Source: Aquificota bacterium
GTDB taxonomy: Bacteria > Aquificota > Aquificia > Aquificales > Aquificaceae
Direction: 5' to 3'
NCBI GenBank assembly: GCA_030549905.1
Contig: JAUQQK010000007.1
Coordinates: 2,612 to 66,611, forward strand
DNA: 64,000 nt
Positions 1 to 19,997 of the stretch are shown here, piece by piece (the first letter of the stretch is position 1; each line of letters begins with the position of its first letter). The notes below the pieces were generated by a model that worked only from the letters and a program-made list of their open reading frames with translations, had not been told where the DNA came from and made no database searches. The position numbers and the translations under genes were made by a program.

Positions 1-7
1 ATTCTGT

Positions 8-196
8 ATGGCAAAGGCAAAAAAGGAAAAGGTCAGGTTTATAAAGGACAGCAAAGGAAGGGTAAGGCATGCCTTAATGTCCGTAGAGGAATACAGGCAA
101 TTAGTGGAAGACCTGCATGACCTCAGGAAAGTCTTAGAGAGGAAAGAGGAAGCCCTTATAAGCCTTGAGGAAGTCAAGAAAGAGCTAAATGTATGA
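8..196 (+). CDS. Putative small type II antitoxin (Phd/YefM- or RelB-like), orphan
   Basis: This 62-aa ORF has a basic N-terminus and a helical acidic C-terminus (ALMSVEEYRQLVEDLHDLRKVLE). Its stop overlaps an ATG (ATGA at 193-196) that opens only a 13-codon ORF. Confidence 0.4.
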   Translation: MAKAKKEKVRFIKDSKGRVRHALMSVEEYRQLVEDLHDLRKVLERKEEALISLEEVKKELNV

Positions 197-321
197 GGTT
201 CTATTTAAAGCCTCATCCACTATATAAGGCATAAAAGCTTAAATGTTAGGAGGTGTTAGGGGTTAAAACTGATAAAACAACCCTTAAGTCAAAAATAATG
301 GGTAGGTGGTGGAGCATGGTT

Positions 322-361
322 TTAACTCCTTTCCTGCTTATAAGCCCTTATGTGGAGTTAA
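322..361. repeat. Inverted repeat TTAACTCC-N24-GGAGTTAA (copy 1)
   Basis: Arms at 322-329 and 354-361 were read directly. The same arms recur at 733-772 and 3280-3318. Confidence 0.8.
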
Positions 362-386
362 ACCCATACCCTACTCTACTACAGAA

Positions 387-592
387 TGAGCCAATGAGCT
401 GGTTTTTTCTAATGCTTGTATTTCAAGGCTTTGAATTAGCTCACTACCTTTTGAGCTGGATTGAGCTAATGAGCTGGCAGGCTGTCCGTTTAGCTCACTG
501 GGTGGCTCACTGGCTCATACTGGCTCAAACCCCCATGAGCCAATTCAAAAGCTTGATACTCAATAACTTCACAATTTTGGCTCACTGGCTCA
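387..592. repeat. Iteron-like cluster, a candidate replication origin of E1
   Basis: At least 12 copies of the heptamer TGAGC(C/T)(A/G), or its complement, occur in both orientations within about 200 bp. Examples are TGAGCCAATGAGCTGG, TGAGCTGGATTGAGCTAATGAGCTGG, and TGGCTCACTGGCTCA (twice). The only ORF here (253-693) has a repeat-driven LAHW-type composition. Confidence 0.6.
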
Positions 593-620
593 TTAAAGGT
601 TATGGGTTATGGAAGGGAGG

Positions 621-703
621 ATTACTGATTACTGAAAACCCCCATTTCAGTAATCCAAAGCCTTGTCTTTCAATGGTTTCCTGTTATTACTGAAATACTG
701 AAA
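621..703. repeat. ATTACTG(AAA) repeat cluster with an 11-bp hairpin
   Basis: Tandem ATTACTG units lie at 621-627 and 628-634. GATTACTGAAA (627-637) pairs with TTTCAGTAATC (645-655) across a 7-nt loop. Further copies lie at 686-695 and 696-703. Confidence 0.7.
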
Positions 704-732
704 TTAGGCTTATATAGGCTTGCCATATGGCA

Positions 733-772
733 TTAACTCCACTCATACCCCTAAGCCTTTAGGTGGAGTTAA
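733..772. repeat. Inverted repeat TTAACTCCAC-N20-GTGGAGTTAA (copy 2)
   Basis: Perfect 10-bp arms at 733-742 and 763-772. Confidence 0.8.
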
Positions 773-837
773 AACCACACAAAAAGCCAAGCCCCTTAAA
801 GAGCTTGGCAAGGGTTTTATTGCATAGCCCTATAGCT

Positions 838-1101
838 CTATGCCTTTCCTCCTTTGCCTTTAAGGAATAAAAATTCCAGCTCTTTGGCAAGATAAATAAG
901 CTCTTGCCTTGATAGGCTAAAGGCTACCCTCTGGCTCTGTTCTTTGTCCCCTTTTTTGCCATCAGACAGCACCAGCATTACCCCGCCGTCTTCCTCATTG
1001 ACCTGCACGGTCAATTTCTTGTAGGTTTCAGTCCGTTCATTGAAATGCAAAATGCTAACTGCTTCTTTCCATCCGTTGGTTTTTTGCTTTAAGTCCTTCA
1101 T
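838..1101 (-). CDS. Hypothetical protein (87 aa), E1 orphan
   Basis: The ORF overlaps the upstream ORF by 4 nt, which suggests translational coupling. I recognise no motif. Confidence 0.55.
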   Translation of the reverse strand: MKDLKQKTNGWKEAVSILHFNERTETYKKLTVQVNEEDGGVMLVLSDGKKGDKEQSQRVAFSLSRQELIYLAKELEFLFLKGKGGKA

Positions 1102-1928
1102 GCCACGCCCTCCGTAAGGTTTTGTTTTTCTTTGAGGATAGCCCAGCAGGCTTGAGCCATATGGTATATGAGCCTATCCACTAAATCCGCATTGCCATAA
1201 GCAGAAAATTGCAGGTCTTCAAACCTACCCTCAAGGATAAGGTCATCTGATGTGATGGGCTTTGTATGGAAGATAAAACCCTCAGGTAAATAGCACTTGT
1301 CTGGAAGGGCTTCATTACCCTCAAAGGCTCTAACAACATTAAAGAAGCTCTTATAAGCTGTCTGCAGGTCAGGGGTTAAGACCTTTACATAGCCAGCCCC
1401 GTTTTTCACAAAAACAGCCAGAGCCTTATCGTCTAACAGGAAAAGCCTGAGGTCTGAAAAGCCTTTGCCTTCTAAAGACTTAAGAAACTCCTTAAACCTG
1501 CTCAGGTCTTCTTTCTTCATGAAGCCCTCAATAAGCTCATCCACATAAACAGGCTCAGGCATGCTTACCTTAGCCCATGCCTTAACTATAAACCTTTCCT
1601 TTGCATATCTTTCATAATCCTTCCTGCTTGCCAAAAGCCCGCCGTCCGTTTCTCTGTGAAATCTTTCATACCCTTCCTTGTCTGTGAGGTAGATGGTAGA
1701 GTGCCAGAAGTAATAACCACCATCTACAAGCCACCGCCTAAACTCATCATTACACAAAGCCAAAAACCTAAGCCCCGTCCTTTGCCTTAGATAGTGTCCT
1801 ATCTTGTTTAAAAAGGCATGGAAAAAGCCCGCCCCGTCTTCAAAAACTGAGGGCATAAACCCTTCCTTAAACTTCTTCACCAGTTTGCTGTCCTTATAGA
1901 TTTCACAGCCACCAAAATATAGCCTCAT
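1098..1928 (-). CDS. Hypothetical protein (276 aa), E1 orphan; a candidate replication protein by position only
   Basis: This is the largest ORF of E1 apart from the integrase. It lies on the same strand and in the same operon as the flanking orphans, next to the iteron block. I recognise no catalytic motif. Confidence 0.6.
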   Translation of the reverse strand: MRLYFGGCEIYKDSKLVKKFKEGFMPSVFEDGAGFFHAFLNKIGHYLRQRTGLRFLALCNDEFRRWLVDGGYYFWHSTIYLTDKEGYERFHRETDGGLLASRKDYERYAKERFIVKAWAKVSMPEPVYVDELIEGFMKKEDLSRFKEFLKSLEGKGFSDLRLFLLDDKALAVFVKNGAGYVKVLTPDLQTAYKSFFNVVRAFEGNEALPDKCYLPEGFIFHTKPITSDDLILEGRFEDLQFSAYGNADLVDRLIYHMAQACWAILKEKQNLTEGVA

Positions 1929-1988
1929 CTTAATACCTCCTTCATGGTTTTTAAAAGGCAGGCATAAGCCCTGCCCTTGTTTGCCTTT

Positions 1989-2363
1989 TCATGCAACCGC
2001 CTCCTCAAGCTTTGGAAGGCTGTCCTCAAGCAAGCCAATAACAGCCCTGACAAGCTCCTTAATCCTGTCTTCCTTTGCTTGTAGCCTCTGGTATTCCTCA
2101 AACAAAACCCTAACCTTCTCATCTCTTATGGCTCTTGCCCCAGCCTCACCACCAAAATTTTTGATGTTGCCTAAAGACCTCCACGCCTTTTTACCATTGC
2201 CTAAGGACTTCCACACATACAGGTATCTGTTGCCATTGATTTCCTTAATGCTGTAGCCCTTGAGGCTCATCAGATATGCAAGGCTCTTTTTCCTTTCCTG
2301 CAGGGCATTAAGCTCATGCCTAAGCTCTTCCATCCACCTGTCTAAGGTCTGCAGTTCCTTCAT
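1989..2363 (-). CDS. Hypothetical coiled-coil protein (124 aa from ATG 2363), E1
   Basis: AGGAGG (complement of 2371-2376) lies 7 nt upstream of the ATG at 2363. The longer ORF starting at 2396 lacks an RBS. A C-terminal relic of a homolog (EEYQ.L.K...) occurs in E2 at about 35540-35662. Confidence 0.6.
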   Translation of the reverse strand: MKELQTLDRWMEELRHELNALQERKKSLAYLMSLKGYSIKEINGNRYLYVWKSLGNGKKAWRSLGNIKNFGGEAGARAIRDEKVRVLFEEYQRLQAKEDRIKELVRAVIGLLEDSLPKLEEAVA

Positions 2364-2403
2364 GGCTAAACCTCCTTTGAGGGTTTTCATAGACATAATT
2401 ATA

Positions 2404-2424
2404 TGACATTTTTTGAAAATGTCA
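2404..2424. promoter_or_regulatory. Perfect palindrome TGACATTTT-TTG-AAAATGTCA, a candidate operator
   Basis: The 9-bp arms were read directly. The site lies in the divergent intergenic region between the 1989-2363 gene and the RHH gene. Confidence 0.5.
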
Positions 2425-2451
2425 AGTAGGAAACGGCTATATTTTTACCTC

Positions 2452-2480
2452 TTGACTTTACGGCTTGTATATGCTATATT
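2452..2480 (+). promoter_or_regulatory. Sigma70-like promoter for the RHH gene (TTGACT-17-TATATT)
   Basis: The -35 box is at 2452-2457 and the -10 box at 2475-2480. The ATG at 2487 is only 6 nt after the -10 box, which implies a leaderless or near-leaderless mRNA. Confidence 0.45.
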
Positions 2481-2486
2481 CAAGTC

Positions 2487-2681
2487 ATGGGCAGGATAGC
2501 AGGAAGAAAAGGGTTAAGTGTTAAGCTCCAACTTTCCAAGCTAACCACCAAGCTACCCACTGAGCTATATGAATGGCTACACCAGAAAAGTGAGCAGGAA
2601 GGCAAGACTATAAGCCTCATCCTCACTGAAATACTTGAAAAGGCTAAGCAGGAAGAGGAAGCCCAGCAGGGTGGTAAGTGA
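2487..2681 (+). CDS. Ribbon-helix-helix (CopG/Arc-like) DNA-binding protein
   Basis: This 64-aa ORF has a beta strand and two helices in the RHH pattern (KLTTKLPTELYEWL...GKTISLILTEILEKA). A homolog occurs in E2 at 35726-35917. Confidence 0.65.
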   Translation: MGRIAGRKGLSVKLQLSKLTTKLPTELYEWLHQKSEQEGKTISLILTEILEKAKQEEEAQQGGK

Positions 2682-2923
2682 TGGAAGGGCTAAAGAAAAG
2701 GCTTGAGATTGAGCATGACAGATTTAAGGTCTTCCTGTCTATAGCCTCTCTTGTAATTGGTGGTGTTATAGGTCTATTGTTCAAGGAGAAGGATACAATT
2801 ACCAGCGTTCTTATAGTTTTGGGCATAATACTGGCATTGTTCAGTTTTGGTCTATCCGTTAGTTCTTTCCTGAAGGTTAATAGGCTATTAAAATCTTTGG
2901 AGGAGGTGAGCAAGGATGTTTGA
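2678..2923 (+). CDS. Small membrane protein (81 aa, 2 TM)
   Basis: The ORF has two hydrophobic helices and overlaps the RHH stop codon. It has the same architecture as the E2 ORF at 35926-36156. Confidence 0.55.
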   Translation: MMEGLKKRLEIEHDRFKVFLSIASLVIGGVIGLLFKEKDTITSVLIVLGIILALFSFGLSVSSFLKVNRLLKSLEEVSKDV

Positions 2924-3053
2924 GCTAATTGCAGTCATCATATTAGGCATTATTGTCATAGGTGCATTTGGCATAATGCTTTATGAAGAAATGAAGCCCC
3001 TGCCCTATGAGAAGGACAAGGACAAAAAGCCCCAGACTAATAAGCCGTCATGA
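2916..3053 (+). CDS. Tiny membrane protein (45 aa, 1 TM)
   Basis: The product is MFELIAVIILGIIVIGAFGIMLYEE... followed by a lysine-rich tail. A GGAGG-type RBS lies at 2901-2907 and the start overlaps the preceding ORF. Confidence 0.4.
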   Translation: MFELIAVIILGIIVIGAFGIMLYEEMKPLPYEKDKDKKPQTNKPS

Positions 3054-3065
3054 AAGGTTCTAAAC

Positions 3066-3164
3066 ATGGATAGCAAGGAAGAGGTTCAGGAGCTGATAGC
3101 CCACTACAGAAACCTGTTTAATCAACTCTGGAATGGCTTAATATGGAAAACTACGGAGGCTTGA
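3066..3164 (+). pseudogene. Deletion-truncated copy of the E2-type 76-aa membrane protein gene
   Basis: The first 25 codons (MDSKEEVQELIAHYRNLFNQLWNGL) are near-identical at DNA level to 35926-36000. About 156 bp present in E2 (36001-36156) are then missing. Confidence 0.6.
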
Positions 3165-3244
3165 TAATAGTTTCCATTTTGGCAGTTATATTTATTGCAG
3201 AACTCCTTTACATTGCATGGGATATGCATAAGGACAGGGTTTAA
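3143..3244 (+). CDS. Tiny membrane protein (33 aa, 1 TM)
   Basis: The product is MENYGGLIIVSILAVIFIAELLYIAWDMHKDRV. An identical peptide is encoded at 36159-36260. Confidence 0.45.
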   Translation: MENYGGLIIVSILAVIFIAELLYIAWDMHKDRV

Positions 3245-3279
3245 GCATGAGCCTAAGGGTTAAGGCTTTTTCTGTGGGT

Positions 3280-3318
3280 TTAACTCCATTCATGGCTCAG
3301 GACAGGCAAGGGAGTTAA
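3280..3318. repeat. Inverted repeat TTAACTCC-N23-GGAGTTAA (copy 3), directly upstream of the integrase ATG
   Basis: Arms lie at 3280-3287 and 3311-3318. The right arm doubles as the integrase RBS. Confidence 0.8.
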
Positions 3319-3321
3319 GGC

Positions 3322-4401
3322 ATGGCAGGTAAAAAGAAGGGTAAAGTAGCCTACGGTGATAACCTTTATGAAATTCATGGCTCATACTGGCTAATATTTA
3401 CCCATCATGGCAAGACCTACAGAGAAAGGATTGGAAGGGTCAAAGACATGCCCCTCACTATGGCAAGGAATATAGCAGTAAAGAGGAAGGCAGAGATAAT
3501 TGAAGGCACTTATTTGCCTAAGAAAGAGGAAAACCTGACCTTTGAGGAGCTTGCTAAGGAATATTTAAGCTGGTATAAATCCACACGCCCGCAGGCAAGG
3601 AAAAGAACCCTTTACGATGTGGAAAAGAGGATTGACAGGCTTGTGGGCTACTTTGGAGGTATGCCTGTCCATCAGATAAGCACCTTCACCGTTGAGCAGT
3701 ATAAACAGGACAGGCTAAGGGCAGGCATAAAACCAAACACCATAAACCGTGAGCTAAACATCTTAAGGGCTATCCTCAAAAAGGCTAAGGAGCTAACAGG
3801 CTACAGCCAAGAGCTTCCTAAAGTCCAGCTTTTTAAGGTAGATGACAGCAGGCTAAAGTTCTTAAAGCCAGAGGAAGCCCAGAGGCTAATATCCGCCTGC
3901 CCCTCATGGCTAAAGCCAGCAGTTAAGTTTGCCATCTACACAGGACTAAGAGCCAGTGAGCTTTTTAGCCTAAAATGGGAGGATGTGGATTTAGAGCATG
4001 GTTATATAACCTTTACCAATGCCAAAAACGGAGAGGTTTCAAGGCTACCCTTAAGCCCTCAAGCTCTGGAAGTCCTTAAGGAGTTAAAAGGCAACAACCC
4101 CCGCATAGGCTACATATTTGTCAATTCCAGAGGAAAGCCCTATAAATACGACGACAGGACATATTTGAAAGCCTTTAAAACCGCCTGCAAAAAGGCAGGC
4201 TTGCAGGATTTCAGATTTCATGACCTTAGACATACCTTTGCCTCATGGCTTGCATTGGAAGGCACTGACCTTTACACCATCCAGCACCTTACAAGGCATA
4301 AATCCACAGCTATGGTAAAGAGGTATGCCCACCTAAGCCCAGAGCATTTAAGGAAAGCTCTGGAAAAGCTTGGCAAGTTTATGGAAGAAGGCAAGGAGTA
4401 G
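3322..4401 (+). CDS. int: Tyrosine-type site-specific recombinase (phage integrase family)
   Basis: This 359-aa ORF has an N-terminal SAM-like domain and catalytic-domain motifs: TGLRASELFSLKWEDV (Arg), HDLRHTFAS (His-x-x-Arg), LTRHKS, and VKRYAHL (Tyr nucleophile). Confidence 0.9.
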   Translation: MAGKKKGKVAYGDNLYEIHGSYWLIFTHHGKTYRERIGRVKDMPLTMARNIAVKRKAEIIEGTYLPKKEENLTFEELAKEYLSWYKSTRPQARKRTLYDVEKRIDRLVGYFGGMPVHQISTFTVEQYKQDRLRAGIKPNTINRELNILRAILKKAKELTGYSQELPKVQLFKVDDSRLKFLKPEEAQRLISACPSWLKPAVKFAIYTGLRASELFSLKWEDVDLEHGYITFTNAKNGEVSRLPLSPQALEVLKELKGNNPRIGYIFVNSRGKPYKYDDRTYLKAFKTACKKAGLQDFRFHDLRHTFASWLALEGTDLYTIQHLTRHKSTAMVKRYAHLSPEHLRKALEKLGKFMEEGKE

Positions 4402-4490
4402 GTTTTAATCCAACTTTTAACCTATCTTTAACACCTAACCACCTACCCCATCAAAAGGCTTGAAATTCAAAGTTTTAAAAATTCAAAATG

Positions 4491-4540
4491 CCATCCTCAC
4501 AAGATGGAGGTCGGAGGTTCGAGTCCTCCATCGCCCACCA
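4491..4540 (+). other. 3' fragment of tRNA-Val(CAC) (anticodon stem to CCA), a putative attR of E1
   Basis: The fragment folds as CCATC/CTCACAA/GATGG (anticodon CAC), variable loop AGGTC, T-arm GGAGG-TTCGAGT-CCTCC, and acceptor 3' strand ATCGCCC-A-CCA. No D-arm and no GGGCGAT 5' strand occur upstream. Confidence 0.75.
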
Positions 4541-4573
4541 CTAAAAATCAACTAATTAAAAACTTTTAAAAAC

Positions 4574-4602
4574 TTGACAAAGTGAAAGAACATTCATAAT
4601 TT
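4574..4602 (+). promoter_or_regulatory. Sigma70-like promoter of the hydrogenase operon (TTGACA-17-TAATTT)
   Basis: The -35 box is at 4574-4579 and the -10 box at 4597-4602, 27 nt upstream of the hynS ATG. Confidence 0.4.
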
Positions 4603-4628
4603 AAGAAGGGTGAAAAGGGGGAAAATTT

Positions 4629-7657: not shown

Positions 7658-9348
7658 AGAGGCTGGTGATTGACCCGATAACCAGGATTGAAGGGCATTT
7701 GAGGATTGAGTTGGAGCTTGAAGGAAATCGCGTAAAAAGAGCCTATTCTTCTGGGACAATGGTGAGAGGTATTGAGATAATACTACGGGGGAGGGACCCA
7801 AGGGAAGCCTGGGCTTTTGCTCAAAGGATATGCGGCGTATGCACTACAGTGCATGCCTTTGCCTCCATAAGGGCTGTGGAGGATGCCCTTGGCATAAGAA
7901 TTCCAAGAAACGCTTCTCTAATAAGGAAGCTCATGATAGGCACCCTTTTTGTACACGATCACGTGGTACACTTTTATCATCTTCATTCCCTTGACTGGGT
8001 GAACCCAGTGCATGCTCTCAAGGCGGACCCAGTAAAAACCTCTGAGCTTGCAAGAAATGTTTCCAACTACGAAAAGTCATCGCCTTCATACTTTAAGGAA
8101 ATCCAGGAGAAGATAAGACAGCAGGTAGAGAGAAGACAGCTTGGTATTTTTAGTAAGGGCTACTGGGACCATCCCGAATACAGATTACCGCCAGAGGCAA
8201 ACCTTCTGCTTCTTGCACATTACATAGAGGCTTTAAACTGGCAAACGCAGATAGTTCAGGTGCATACAATCTTTGGCGGTAAAAACCCACATCCCAACTT
8301 TGCAGTGGGTGGGATGCCCTGTAGTATAGACCTTCAGAGCGATACAGCCATAAACACGGAAAGGCTCAGCAGAGTTAAAAGTTTGATAGACAGCATGTTA
8401 GACTTCGTGGAAAAGGTTTATATACCCGACCTTATGCTTCTGGCAGGTTTTTACAAAAACTGGTTTGAAAGGGGTGAGGGCATTGGAAACTTCCTCGTGC
8501 TTGGAGAACCAGATGGGGACTCTCACAGGGAAGGCAAATTCTTCATACCGCCCACCTTTATAAGGAACAGGAATCTAAAAGCCTACGAAGATGTGGATTA
8601 CTCAAAGATAGAGGAATACGTAGCCCACAGCTGGTATAGTTATTCGGTTGGTGATGATAAGGGGCTCCATCCCTTTGAGGGAGAGACGCTTCTAAACTAT
8701 ACGGGACCTGAACCACCCTATGAACACTTAAATGTAGAAGGTAAATATAGCTGGCTGAAGTCCCCAAGGTATGAGGGTCTTTCAGCGGAGGTGGGACCTC
8801 TTGCAAGAGTGCTTGCCATGTATGCAAGGGGTGTGGATATGGTAAGGGAGTCTGTCAGCTCAAGCCTGTCAAAGCTGGGGCTCCCGCTGGAAGCCATGTT
8901 CTCCACCATGGGAAGAACCCTTGCAAGAGGACTGGAAACTCAGCTTTATGCAAGGGCTATGCAGGGCTGGTATAAAGAACTACTTGACAGGATAAAGGGT
9001 GGCGATACAAAAACCTTTGATGGAAGCAGGTGGGAGCCTTCCACATGGGAAAGGGAAGCAAAAGGGCTTGGTCTAATGGAAGCTCCTAGGGGCTCCCTTT
9101 CGCACTGGGTGCATATAAGGGAGGCTAAAATACATAACTATCAGTGTGTGGTGCCCACCACATGGAATGGCTCTCCAAGGGATGCAAAGGGGCAACCTTC
9201 TCCTTATGAAGCAAGCCTTGTGGGGCATGAGATTGCAAAATTGGAAGAACCCTTAGAGATAATAAGAACTATACACTCCTTTGACCCATGTCTTGCCTGT
9301 GCGGTGCATCTATATTACGGAGACTCAAGTGCCCTTGTGCTAATTTAA
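7654..9348 (+). CDS. hynL: [NiFe] hydrogenase large subunit
   Basis: The N-terminal RICGVCTTVH and C-terminal DPCLACAVH nickel-binding motifs are present, followed by a 12-aa C-terminal extension after the His. Confidence 0.95.
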   Translation: MKRLVIDPITRIEGHLRIELELEGNRVKRAYSSGTMVRGIEIILRGRDPREAWAFAQRICGVCTTVHAFASIRAVEDALGIRIPRNASLIRKLMIGTLFVHDHVVHFYHLHSLDWVNPVHALKADPVKTSELARNVSNYEKSSPSYFKEIQEKIRQQVERRQLGIFSKGYWDHPEYRLPPEANLLLLAHYIEALNWQTQIVQVHTIFGGKNPHPNFAVGGMPCSIDLQSDTAINTERLSRVKSLIDSMLDFVEKVYIPDLMLLAGFYKNWFERGEGIGNFLVLGEPDGDSHREGKFFIPPTFIRNRNLKAYEDVDYSKIEEYVAHSWYSYSVGDDKGLHPFEGETLLNYTGPEPPYEHLNVEGKYSWLKSPRYEGLSAEVGPLARVLAMYARGVDMVRESVSSSLSKLGLPLEAMFSTMGRTLARGLETQLYARAMQGWYKELLDRIKGGDTKTFDGSRWEPSTWEREAKGLGLMEAPRGSLSHWVHIREAKIHNYQCVVPTTWNGSPRDAKGQPSPYEASLVGHEIAKLEEPLEIIRTIHSFDPCLACAVHLYYGDSSALVLI

Positions 9349-9366: not shown

Positions 9367-10809
9367 ATGAGTCTGAAGGAAGCCCTAAAAAAGGCAGGGG
9401 ATTACATTTACCTACTGCCAGAGAATACCATACAGGGTCAAAGGGTTCCTGTTTACTTTTACCTCAGTGAGAGGCTCTATGAGCTTTTGGAAGAGGATGC
9501 CATAAGACAAGCTGCTAACGCTGCCACATTGCCCGGTGTAGAAAAAGCCATATATGTGATGCCAGATGTGCACGTGGGCTACGGTTTTCCTGTGGGTGGC
9601 ATTATGGCAACCGATATTGAAGAAGGCATCATAAGCCCCGGTTCCATAGGATACGACATAAACTGCGGTGTAAGGCTTATAGCCACAAACCTGATGGCGG
9701 AAAGTATAATGCCCGTTAGAAGGGAACTTATGCAGGAGATACTCAAAAGGGTGCCGGCGGGTGTAGGCTCCACGGGGAAACTAAAGCTTTCAAGGGCGGA
9801 ACTTTCTGAAGTAGCTACAAAGGGTGCCAGATGGGCTGTAGAAAAAGGTTTTGGCTTTGAGGAGGACCTTGAGCACATAGAAAGCGGAGGTGCCCTTCCC
9901 AATGCGGACCCATCAAAGGTTTCAGACTTTGCCTTCCAGAGGGGTTCTGAAGAGCTTGGCACGGTGGGCTCCGGGAACCATTTTGTAGAAGTGCAGTATG
10001 TAGATGAGATATATGATGAAGAAACCGCCAGAAAGCTTGGACTTGAGCTTGGGCAGGTTTGCATAATGGTGCATTCGGGCTCAAGGGGTTTCGGTCATCA
10101 GGTATGCGTAGATTATCTGAAAACCGCAAGGGAAGCCCTTAAAAAATACCACATAGAGATACCAGACATGCAGCTTGCCTGCATGCCCTTTAAATCGGAA
10201 GAGGGTCAGGGCTACTTTAAAGCCATGAACTCAGCCGCCAACTACGCCTTTGCCAACAGGCAAATACTTGGCTACCTTACCGCAGATACTCTAAGAAGTT
10301 TCCTTCACATATCCTGGGAGGAACTTGGCTACAGGCTCATATACGACCTTGCCCACAACATAGGAAAGGTGGAAGAGCATAAGGTAGATGGCAAAAGGAA
10401 GAAGCTCCTCGTGCATCGTAAGGGTGCTACAAGAGCCTTCCCACCCCACAACCCGGATGTGCCACCTGCTTACAAAGATATAGGTCAGCCCGTTATAATA
10501 CCGGGCGATGTGGGTAGGTATTCTTTCCTTTTGGTGGGACAAAGCAAAAGTATGGAGCTTAGCTTTGGGAGTGCCTGCCACGGTGCAGGAAGGCTCATGT
10601 CAAGGACTAAGGCAAAGGAGTTTGTAAAAAGGGAGGGGCTTGAGAAGGTGCTGAGCGGTCTTGTGGTGGTAGCGAGGGGTAAAGGAACGGTGGCGGAGGA
10701 GATACCTCAAGCCTATAAGGATGTTTCTGAGGTAGCCATGGTGGTGCATGCCCTTGGCATTGCCAGGCTGGTGGCAAGGTTTAAACCATTAGGCACATTA
10801 AAGGGATAG
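9367..10809 (+). CDS. rtcB: RNA-splicing ligase RtcB
   Basis: This 480-aa ORF carries RtcB signatures (GYDINCGVR, GSGNHF, HSGSRGFGH, HRKGAT). Confidence 0.9.
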   Translation: MSLKEALKKAGDYIYLLPENTIQGQRVPVYFYLSERLYELLEEDAIRQAANAATLPGVEKAIYVMPDVHVGYGFPVGGIMATDIEEGIISPGSIGYDINCGVRLIATNLMAESIMPVRRELMQEILKRVPAGVGSTGKLKLSRAELSEVATKGARWAVEKGFGFEEDLEHIESGGALPNADPSKVSDFAFQRGSEELGTVGSGNHFVEVQYVDEIYDEETARKLGLELGQVCIMVHSGSRGFGHQVCVDYLKTAREALKKYHIEIPDMQLACMPFKSEEGQGYFKAMNSAANYAFANRQILGYLTADTLRSFLHISWEELGYRLIYDLAHNIGKVEEHKVDGKRKKLLVHRKGATRAFPPHNPDVPPAYKDIGQPVIIPGDVGRYSFLLVGQSKSMELSFGSACHGAGRLMSRTKAKEFVKREGLEKVLSGLVVVARGKGTVAEEIPQAYKDVSEVAMVVHALGIARLVARFKPLGTLKG

Positions 10810-19451: not shown

Positions 19452-19997
19452 GTGGTCTATGCTGTGCAGGATACCTTTCTGAAGGTCTTTTTTGAAAGGC
19501 TTGGAGACATTTTTCGCCTGACAGGTGGCACTGCCCTCTCAAGGTTTTATCTGAAACACAGGCTCTCTTAAGGCTTAGACCTCTTTACAGAAAGCACAGA
19601 CCTCTTTACGAAGGGGCACATAGACAGGCTATTAGCCATCGTAGGAGAAGACCTGAAAAGGTTTGAGCTTGACATGAGGGTGGAGGGCAGAGCTCCTTTC
19701 TACAGAAGGCTGTCTGTGGGACGTGAAAACTTAAGCTTCAGAATAGACCTTTCTGTAGATAAGTTCCTTTCTGACCCTGTCAGGACACAGGAGGGTTTTC
19801 TTATAGACAGCCTTGAAAATATAGCGGTCAACAAGCTGATAGCCTTTGAAGACAGGGCGGAGATAAAGGACCTTATGGACATGCTCTTTCTTGAAAGGGA
19901 GGGCTTTTCCCTTGACAGGCTGTTAGAGCTGGCAGATGAGAAGGGGGTGTCTGTTCCCCACGAGGAGCTTTTTACCATAAACCAGCATGGTCTCTGA
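19452..19997 (+). pseudogene. AbiEii/AbiGii-type nucleotidyltransferase toxin gene, disrupted
   Basis: One frame reads FRLTGGTALSRFYLKHRLS*GLDLFT. The family motif (GGTAL...R.S.D.D.F) is interrupted by TAA at 19569-19571. No proper N-terminus is present and there is no AbiEi partner gene. Confidence 0.6.

Follow-up and report, generated by a model that had tools for sequence, protein, structure and literature searches.

A probable integrative plasmid-like element in a tRNA-Val(CAC) gene of a Hydrogenobacter-type member of the Aquificaceae

The DNA analyzed here is a stretch of 64,000 nucleotides (the window) from an Aquificota bacterium of the family Aquificaceae (GenBank assembly GCA_030549905.1, contig JAUQQK010000007.1, positions 2,612 to 66,611 of the forward strand). 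Its left edge carries part of an element that we call E1, which ends in an integrase gene followed by a fragment of a tRNA-Val(CAC) gene. A preliminary description, made from the sequence alone, had placed a complete tyrosine recombinase gene just before this fragment. This is borne out by a 359-aa open reading frame (ORF) at 3322..4401 on the plus strand, which matches Pfam Phage_integrase above the cut-off (E = 1.4e-39), as well as Int_N (E = 4e-8), Phage_int_SAM_3, a SAM-like core-binding domain (E = 3e-5), and the PHROG 1 integrase family (E = 9e-79). The catalytic residues by which a tyrosine recombinase (PF00589) is recognized were all located (R210, K235, H300, R303, H326, and Y335). 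The match to the arm-binding domain Arm-DNA-bind_3 is weak (E = 0.046), and the protein is only ∼30% identical to any phage or plasmid integrase in INPHARED or PLSDB.

Downstream from the integrase gene, positions 4491-4540 read CCATC-CTCACAA-GATGG-AGGTC-GGAGG-TTCGAGT-CCTCC-ATCGCCC-A-CCA. These nucleotides represent the anticodon arm (CAC), variable loop, T-arm, 3′ acceptor strand, discriminator A, and CCA of a tRNA-Val. As had been proposed, the corresponding 5′ acceptor strand is missing: GGGCGAT is not found upstream of the fragment, and ARAGORN calls no tRNA at 4491-4540, reporting only three tRNA genes, all elsewhere in the window. The earlier observation that CCA is encoded by the fragment and by none of the three intact tRNA genes (0 of 3) is likewise correct. 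The 50-mer occurs once in the window even when 3 mismatches are allowed, against a chance expectation of 0.

The part of E1 that extends beyond the window was found by an exact-protein look-up with a 276-aa ORF of the element (p276). This search retrieved a 20.8-kb stretch, here called L001, of a 247-kb metagenome contig (ENA ERZ1669373), which carries E1 in reverse orientation and whose chromosomal flank is 99.4% identical to that of the window. All parts of the element to the left of the window are read from L001, which is a close variant, and not from the window itself; the same kind of look-up with p87 and HynL of the window gave no match. The intact tRNA-Val(CAC) gene that had been expected to the left is present at L001 19889-19960 (ARAGORN). 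Its last 48 nt (19889-19936; GCCATCCTCACAAGATGGAGGTCGGAGGTTCGAGTCCTCCATCGCCCA) are identical to L001 7338-7385 and to window 4490-4537, and the two copies in L001 are direct repeats 12,551 bp apart. The tRNA-Val parts of the att fragment were thus identified correctly in the preliminary description, whereas its length of 50 nt was not: the true repeat is 48 nt, and the CCA is chromosomal.

The window copy of the repeat is the attR core, a displaced 3′ fragment of tRNA-Val(CAC) that runs from the anticodon stem to the discriminator base (4490..4537, plus strand), begins 89 nt past the intact integrase gene, and is identical to attL at 48 of 48 positions. Past the repeat, attL continues into TTCC..., which is element sequence, and attR into CCAC..., which is chromosome. 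The regenerated tRNA-Val(CAC) gene, which looks functional, consequently ends ...CCCA-TTCC and encodes no CCA. An intact regenerated tRNA gene and a displaced fragment in direct orientation at opposite ends of an island form the signature described for the Islander collection (PMC4383910). L001 shows both, with the integrase gene inside the island and near one end, as the Islander definition also specifies.

Uninterrupted copies of the target were found as well, which the preliminary description had predicted as a tRNA-Val directly upstream of hynS. A search for identical copies of the HynS protein of the window led to L087 (JGI metagenome 3300038392), in which a histone-deacetylase-like gene, a 68-aa ORF, an intact tRNA-Val(CAC) gene with encoded CCA, and hynS follow one another. 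HynS of L087 is 100% identical to that of the window, and the L087 tRNA contains the same 48 nt as the attR core. The tRNA-Val is then followed by CCA-CTAAAAATCAACTAATTAAAAACTTTTAAAAACTTGAC, which matches the window exactly from 4538 on. Because flank and HynS are identical and the tRNA-Val gene is uninterrupted, we conclude that the same species exists without the element. The same gene order, with an identical tRNA directly upstream of hynS, occurs in L007, a related Aquificaceae metagenome-assembled genome (MAG) whose HynS is 75% identical. The uninterrupted target in related genomes that belongs to the Islander definition is therefore represented both in the same species and in a related MAG.

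Window positions 4538..4628 (plus strand) are the original chromosomal flank, comprising the encoded CCA of the tRNA-Val gene before insertion and the region upstream of hynS. They are also identical to the sequence that follows an intact tRNA-Val in another contig, L088. Since the tRNA-Val of the empty site in L087 encodes CCA, this triplet belongs to the original chromosomal gene. Its loss from the regenerated gene should be harmless, because the three other tRNA genes of the window also lack it. In the window the CCA lies at 4538-4540; the identical tRNA of L007 is followed by TTTT (9902-9905).

The repeat in L001 and the empty sites together support the earlier proposal of an att duplication left by integration into tRNA-Val(CAC). 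E1 was inserted by recombination within the 48-nt identity, element sequence regenerates the tRNA gene, and occupancy of the site is polymorphic within one species. Because the shared 48 nt begin with the anticodon stem, E1 belongs to the anticodon-centered class of tRNA att sites. This class is the commonest in Islander, with 2083 of 3919 islands (PMC4383910).

Each att junction includes a flanking arm. The P arm of attR is the end of the element next to the core (4402..4489, plus strand, 88 nt). It holds the palindromic motif AAGGCTTGAAATTCAAAG (repeat family D1), and is homologous, right up to the core boundary, to the P arm of an island at a tRNA-Val(TAC) gene, L166, which is considered below. 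The P′ arm, ∼400 nt next to attL (L001 19510-19880), contains seven copies of CCYTGYC-N3-4-MAA in the same orientation; the background for this motif in the rest of the window is ∼1 per 12 kb. A single copy, CCTTGTCTTTCAA, lies at 661..673 (plus strand) in the origin-like block of the element. The N-terminus of the integrase resembles an arm-binding domain, and the seven P′-arm motifs are candidate arm sites. The attP junction would read ...TTCAAAATG + 48-nt core + TTCCAAACCC... and the attB junction ...GGTAGAGCG + 48-nt core + CCACTAAAAATC.... In exact-pattern scans, an attP-specific 60-mer and the general P-arm-plus-core pattern were absent from JGI metagenome contigs, and a 56-nt P-arm-plus-core pattern found nothing in IMG/VR.

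A cassette of tiny membrane ORFs beside the integrase gene, as proposed earlier, is present and encodes proteins of 33, 32, 45, and 81 aa. The first gene (2678..2923, plus strand) encodes an 81-aa protein with two hydrophobic helices that is 100% identical to p80 of L166 and 74% identical to p80 of L001, with only faint 8xMP/SLATT-like matches in Pfam and NCBIfam. Next is a 45-aa single-pass membrane protein (2916..3053, plus strand; 100% identical to p45 of L166, 82% to p45 of L001, and 51% to p36 of a related contig, L095). Two overlapping mini-ORFs at 3066..3244 (plus strand) encode 32 aa (3066-3164) and a hydrophobic 33 aa (3143-3244). They correspond to p41 and p35 of the relatives, with 59% identity to p41 of L001 and L166 and 40-45% to p39 of L090 and p35 of L166. 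Positions 3139-3243 of the window give no DNA-level alignment with L001.

Three to five very small hydrophobic proteins are tightly linked to the integrase in every relative, including L166, which carries a bacteriophage exclusion (BREX) system. This constant association raises the idea that E1 is a provirus of a small pleomorphic or vesicle-like virus, comparable to plasmaviruses and pleolipoviruses, with the tiny membrane proteins serving as virion proteins. The genome of Acholeplasma phage L2, which is also 12.5 kb, can be counted in its favor. However, E1 offers no candidate for a spike, fusion, or major capsid protein or for an ATPase, and no IMG/VR relatives were found. The retention of the cassette in an island with BREX cargo also better fits an accessory role linked to integration, such as exclusion. 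We regard a provirus as a most improbable explanation.

Upstream of the cassette, a 64-aa protein encoded at 2487..2681 (plus strand) agrees with the proposed ribbon-helix-helix (RHH) regulator of the CopG/Arc-like type, although by a weak match (Pfam RHH_5, E = 2e-3, below the cut-off; PHROGs Arc-like repressor, E = 7e-3). Homologues with 45-61% identity occupy the same position in L001 (61%), L090, and L095. Several metagenome contigs (L003 and L089) break near the RHH gene. The adjoining region at 2398..2480 contains divergent promoters. The leftward one (minus strand, 2425..2398) has the form TTGACA-16-TATAAT and matches the consensus at 12 of 12 positions. The rightward one (plus strand) is TTGACT-17-TATATT with a TG and ends 7 nt before the RHH ATG, so that the mRNA of this gene may be leaderless or nearly so (2480-2487). 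A 21-bp palindrome, TGACATTTT-TTG-AAAATGTCA, at 2407-2427 overlaps the leftward −35 element and is a candidate RHH operator.

The leftward promoter fits the start at 2363 of p124, a coiled-coil orphan (1989..2363, minus strand) that is 50-51% identical to 125-aa proteins of L090 and L095. This is the first gene of a leftward operon that continues with p276 (1098..1928, minus strand) and p87 (838..1101, minus strand). The preliminary description had called these three genes an orphan operon. The operon stands, but only p276 is a true ORFan, as p124 and p87 are conserved in the family (67-70% identity of p87 to 86-aa proteins of L090 and L095). Neither p124 nor p87 has a match in Pfam, PHROGs, NCBIfam, or PADLOC, and the profiles of both hit PDB sequences no better than expected by chance. 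A search of 5.8 billion protein clusters and a full phmmer search of 1.84 billion representatives found no homologue of p276 but itself. The gene is not present in the related elements, and its single-sequence AlphaFold2 model is unusable (pLDDT 43). It is element-specific cargo inserted between p124 and p87. A terminator-like hairpin follows p87 (786..809, minus strand), with a 10-bp stem containing 6 G-C pairs and then the T-run TTTTTGTGTG. L001 carries a 99-aa gene (p99) after p87 that is missing from the window through a deletion of ∼290 bp (window 828-840 versus L001 11088-11387).

The repeat-rich block described earlier as iterons is present at 300..790. It contains 13 TGAGC/GCTCA pentamers in both orientations (∼380-600), or 13 in 250 nt compared with ∼0.9 expected from the window average. 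A 54-nt repeat that can form a hairpin flanks the pentamers on both sides (316-369 and 727-780), and inverted repeats lie at 309-329/354-374 and 717-742/763-788. The sequence TGGCTCACTGGCTCAT occurs twice in this origin-like block, 75 nt apart, and the repeats probably account for a 146-aa ORF at 253-693, which we do not take for a real gene. A second block of 74 nt with 80% similarity follows rusA in L001, where the two 74-nt blocks are 6321 nt apart. In another contig, L002, the rusA-side iteron-like block is joined to the main iteron block (L002 11999-12091; L001 18079-18152 and 11758-11831). The segment encoding the toxin-antitoxin-like genes, p343, HTH_17, and the replication protein is then repeated. 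This junction implies a duplication in tandem or, alternatively, a circular mini-replicon of 6.3 kb formed by recombination between the blocks.

At the very edge of the window is a 62-aa Phd/YefM-RelB-like protein (8..196, plus strand; PhdYeFM_antitox E = 6e-4, RelB-like E = 1e-3, both below the gathering score), 100% identical to L001 12146-12334. The ORF that the preliminary description took for an antitoxin is thus present. It is the third gene of an operon that begins with DUF4258 (E = 2e-4) and DUF2283 (E = 1e-16), both of which lie to the left of the window.

Most of the replication module lies beyond the window in L001, where the element measures ∼12.5 kb. Immediately relevant is a 60-aa HTH_17 protein (E = 1e-12) encoded upstream of the replication protein; the HTH_17 family includes Xis/AlpA-type excisionases. 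The replication protein itself (Rep) has 927 aa and combines a Toprim domain (DUF3854; PF12965, E = 2.3e-22) with a helicase, and is also annotated with Pfam MTBMA_p00010_2nd. Residues E179, D237, and D239 (in TEGEKK and FDxD) and the Walker A residues G426-K427-S428 are invariant in 9 homologues, so that all parts of the DUF3854 Rep architecture (the domain, the acidic Toprim residues, and a P-loop NTPase/helicase) were found. A profile search of Rep against PDB sequences gave only chance-level hits. Reps with DUF3854, namely CyRepA1 and CyRepA2, sustain plasmid replication in cyanobacteria (PMC10079941).

L001 further encodes a conserved 343-aa orphan (p343) with a C-terminal zinc ribbon and weak HNH-like PHROG matches, the orphans p118 and p111, a RusA resolvase (E = 3e-14), and a second DUF4258/DUF2283 pair followed by the orphan p191. 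Only three relatives of p343 were found. A moderately confident AlphaFold2 model of this protein from a 4-sequence alignment (pLDDT 72) gave no Foldseek hit below E = 0.02 in PDB or BFVD. The G+C content of the element is 41-44%, except for one 1-kb segment at 48%, and that of the flanking chromosome is 44-50%.

Several classes of genes are not represented in E1. Searches of Pfam, PHROGs, NCBIfam, and PADLOC revealed no capsid, portal, terminase, tail, or lysis genes. Pfam and NCBIfam gave no relaxase, coupling-protein, or type IV secretion families, and PADLOC found no known defense system among ten E1 proteins. Phage-like matches in PHROGs and Pfam are limited to the integrase, the Arc-like repressor, weak primase- and HNH-like similarities, and RusA. 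Classification as a prophage, an integrative and conjugative or mobilizable element (ICE/IME), or a member of the P4-like satellites or phage-inducible chromosomal islands (PICIs) was considered and rejected at the sequence level, as the hallmark genes are missing.

E1 could nevertheless be a phage or virus satellite of the P4-like or PICI-like kind, a small island that excises, replicates itself with its primase-helicase, and is packaged by a helper virus of Hydrogenobacter. A size of 12.5 kb and a tyrosine integrase that targets a tRNA gene would suit such a satellite, as would the placement of an HTH_17/AlpA-type gene directly upstream of a Toprim primase-helicase gene. In addition, RusA is a phage-typical resolvase, the N-terminal domain of Rep resembles phage primases (31-36% identity), and the many orphan genes could conceal capsid-redirecting functions. 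However, neither PHROGs nor Pfam reveals a homologue of any hallmark (small terminase, capsid-size or morphogenesis proteins, Sid/Psu/Delta, head-tail adaptors, Cpm/Ppi, or cos/pac), although divergent analogues may exist. There is no close relative in IMG/VR and no helper virus is known or visible, and the conserved orphan p343 lacks a structural match. On balance we consider a satellite unlikely.

Relatives of E1 do exist. The judgment that it belongs to no recognized family holds in that no described family matches it, but syntenic elements are present in other metagenomes and MAGs of the Aquificaceae. With Rep homologues at 49-56% identity, contigs L095 (JGI metagenome) and L090 and L091 (NCBI MAGs) share its gene order. 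One side carries the integrase, the tiny ORFs, a toxin-antitoxin-like pair, and RHH. The remainder comprises a divergent p125-p86 operon with small genes, a 335-356-aa orphan on the opposite strand, HTH_17, and Rep. The chromosomal proteins of L091 cluster with sequences from Aquificaceae and Hydrogenobacter sp. Pairwise identities, with the L001 copy of E1 as the reference, are 55-61% for the integrase, 46-69% for RHH, 51-52% for p124, 69-70% for p87, 42-54% for p343, 51-53% for HTH_17, 51-52% for Rep, 44% for p111, and 33% for p191. Public collections yield nothing close: Rep matches in PLSDB and INPHARED are partial and at most 36% identical, those in IMG/VR are at most 40% identical and confined to the N-terminal domain, and no relatives occur in the GTDB species representatives. 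The literature that we searched does not describe elements of this kind from Aquificales or Hydrogenobacter. A single-cell study has reported abundant uncharacterized mobile elements in a Hydrogenobacter population (PMC9039060).

The relatives also lie beside tRNA sequences. Downstream from the integrase gene, both L090 and L095 have a 3′ fragment resembling tRNA-Met(CAT), which once more has its start within the anticodon stem; in L090 this fragment (3197-3240) adjoins a frameshifted integrase gene (257 + 125 aa). In L091 an intact tRNA-Gly(CCC) gene (7823-7896) stands beside a P′-arm-like region. L090 and L091 therefore encode an identical Rep and have different tRNAs at their visible ends, which could reflect either separate insertions or tandem arrays. 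Near the insertion site of the element in L095 is a gene for a Cas12f1-like TNB protein of the TnpB type (2017-2952).

Comparison of E1 copies reveals that the element is a mosaic. The integrase, p124, and p276 of the window are 100% identical in protein to those of L001, while RHH is only 61% identical. In contrast, window positions 2592-3139, covering the end of RHH and the small membrane ORFs, show 95% DNA and 100% protein identity to L166. Because this segment is closer to the island at tRNA-Val(TAC) than to the L001 element at tRNA-Val(CAC), we conclude that the element in the window is a recombinant. L166 (JGI 3300038392 Ga0394092_10313) comes from the same metagenome as L087 and carries BrxC-PglZ-BrxL and a PIN protein together with the same small-ORF cassette.

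At the integrase end of L166 (8879-10094), the integrase is identical to that of E1 at 353 of 359 positions (98%). The core of this island is the 3′ part of tRNA-Val(TAC), located in a Val-Thr-Tyr tRNA cluster, and the anticodon stem-loops of tRNA-Val(CAC) and tRNA-Val(TAC) differ at 5 of 17 positions. The six amino acid differences between the two integrases are V124I, S212N, N259S, Q295E, D296G, and F297L, of which the last three lie just before the catalytic H300-x-x-R303. The occurrence of a near-identical integrase and arms at both genes implies that these two tRNA-Val paralogues are, or have been, targets of the module. At L166 10020-10094, a complete tRNA-Val(TAC) gene is reported by ARAGORN. 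The 5′ half of this call is P-arm sequence homologous to the E1 arm, and the whole looks like a displaced fragment mistaken for a tRNA gene.

The same tRNA-Val(TAC) site holds a remnant of ∼950 bp (9569-10612) in L163, a Hydrogenobacter-type MAG (GCA_037924685.1, JAXSNJ010000005.1). Its P′ arm is almost the same as the E1 arm. After a large deletion come the last part of a tiny membrane ORF, an integrase gene that has lost an internal segment (130 aa), a P arm, and a diverged tRNA fragment. The product of its integrase gene is identical to the H. thermophilus hypothetical protein WP_340695431.1.

Such decay, seen in L163 (950 bp, deleted integrase) and in the frameshifted integrase of L090, and the failure to find a circular junction would be expected if E1 itself were an immobile remnant, a fixed island unable to excise. 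Most observations speak otherwise. The integrase is full-length with all catalytic residues, and attL and attR are identical at every core position. A single species has both occupied and empty sites. The genes for Rep and HTH_17 and those of the toxin-antitoxin-like type are intact, and variants of the element differ by modular recombination. The existence of diverged and mosaic versions indicates that the element is, or recently was, mobile. We therefore think it distinctly improbable that E1 is an immobile remnant.

The explanation that best accommodates these findings, and one that we hold with good confidence, is that E1 is a site-specific integrative plasmid-like element of ∼12.5 kb that occupies tRNA-Val(CAC) on the chromosome of a hot-spring, Hydrogenobacter-type member of the Aquificaceae. 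In the mechanism that we envisage, the integrase would recombine attP with the tRNA gene, using the anticodon stem-loop as the core and crossing over in or near the anticodon loop. The seven P′-arm CCYTGYC-N3-4-MAA repeats would act as accessory or arm sites. Directionality would be given by the 60-aa HTH_17 protein, acting as an excisionase or activator. The excised circle could replicate from the TGAGC-iteron block via the 927-aa Rep. The DUF4258/DUF2283 pairs may stabilize the element, and RHH may be a switch that controls the divergent promoters.

Several points weigh against this explanation. No attP junction was seen in assembled public contigs, which leaves excision and episomal replication unproven. 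The attL of the window was deduced from L001, and the element there shares only ∼92% identity with window positions 840-3139. Approximately half of the genes have no recognizable function (p124, p87, p276, p343, p118, p111, and p191), and some of these orphans could conceal a virion or satellite function. The matches behind the Phd, RHH, and DUF4258 assignments fall short of curated thresholds.

A bolder version of the plasmid-like interpretation would make the E1 family an unrecognized type of integrative element that replicates itself in hyperthermophilic bacteria. It would pass between cells by means of the tiny membrane proteins, in a vesicle-borne or pleomorphic-virus-like fashion and not by conjugation or a tailed-phage helper, and the integrase might be retargeted between paralogous tRNA-Val genes by six or fewer amino acid changes. 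This scenario is a long shot.

Members of the Aquificota are key primary producers in hot springs, with almost no characterized mobile elements and very few genetic tools. E1 is a compact and apparently active toolkit from a thermophile, comprising an integrase with a 48-nt tRNA-Val core and arms, a candidate excisionase, and a candidate Rep-plus-iteron replicon. These parts could seed integrative and shuttle vectors for Hydrogenobacter. The near-identical integrases at two tRNA-Val genes form a natural experiment on a shift in target specificity, and the locus shows modular exchange, including with a BREX-carrying relative, as well as rapid decay to 1-kb remnants. Of moderate interest are the phylum of the host, the large proportion of orphan genes, the conserved cassette of micro-membrane proteins, and the apparent switch of tRNA-Val target accompanied by six amino acid differences in the integrase.

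Among known systems, small integrative plasmids are typically circular replicons of ∼10-13 kb with their own replication protein, a tRNA-targeting tyrosine integrase, and both integrated and free forms. They include the pSAM2/pSE211-type plasmids of actinomycetes and the archaeal pTN3, pT26-2, and pSSVi families. An example is the 11.2-kb integrative plasmid pHS87b of Pseudomonas aeruginosa, which has a tRNA-Thr att site (PMC4739549). E1 differs from this group in that no free form has been seen. It also lacks the FtsK/Tra-type transfer gene of the actinomycete elements and the self-splitting integrase of the SSV type, and has no sequence kinship with such plasmids beyond the integrase superfamily.

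The Rep of E1 invites comparison with the CyRepA plasmids pCC5.2, pSYSA, and pAQ1 (PMC10079941), in which an N-terminal DUF3854/Toprim-like domain is also followed by a helicase/NTPase domain. However, matches of the E1 Rep to PLSDB plasmids, some of them cyanobacterial, are partial and below 60% identity, with the best among the matches listed at ∼29%. The E1 Rep additionally has MTBMA_p00010_2nd, and plasmids of the CyRepA group do not integrate. P4-like satellites and PICIs share with E1 their size, tRNA integration, accessory genes without a known function, and a small regulator of the HTH_17/AlpA type encoded upstream of a primase-helicase. In contrast to them, E1 has no recognized packaging or capsid-remodeling genes or cos and no known helper, and its Rep has a different architecture.

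Two islands (L096 and L097) carry a DUF3854 Rep with ∼35% identity and a tyrosine integrase beside a tRNA (Leu-TAG and Ala-GGC). Their gene order is different (DUF5659, Rep, HTH_3, and the integrase at an intact tRNA), their cargo consists of restriction-modification or helicase genes, and they lack the core orphans of E1.

The closest parallel in mode of insertion is with the anticodon-class islands of Islander (Williams 2002; PMC4383910). As in these islands, a tyrosine integrase is sited at one end of E1, a 3′ tRNA direct repeat and a regenerated gene are present, identity begins at the anticodon stem, and both occupied and empty sites exist. E1 is set apart by its integrase, with its ∼30% ceiling in INPHARED and PLSDB, its mostly orphan cargo, and its host in the Aquificota. 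The integration mechanism is textbook and will not surprise a specialist. E1 is not a new system; it adds a new family to a type that is already very well known, the tRNA-integrating element with a tyrosine integrase and a plasmid-type replication module.

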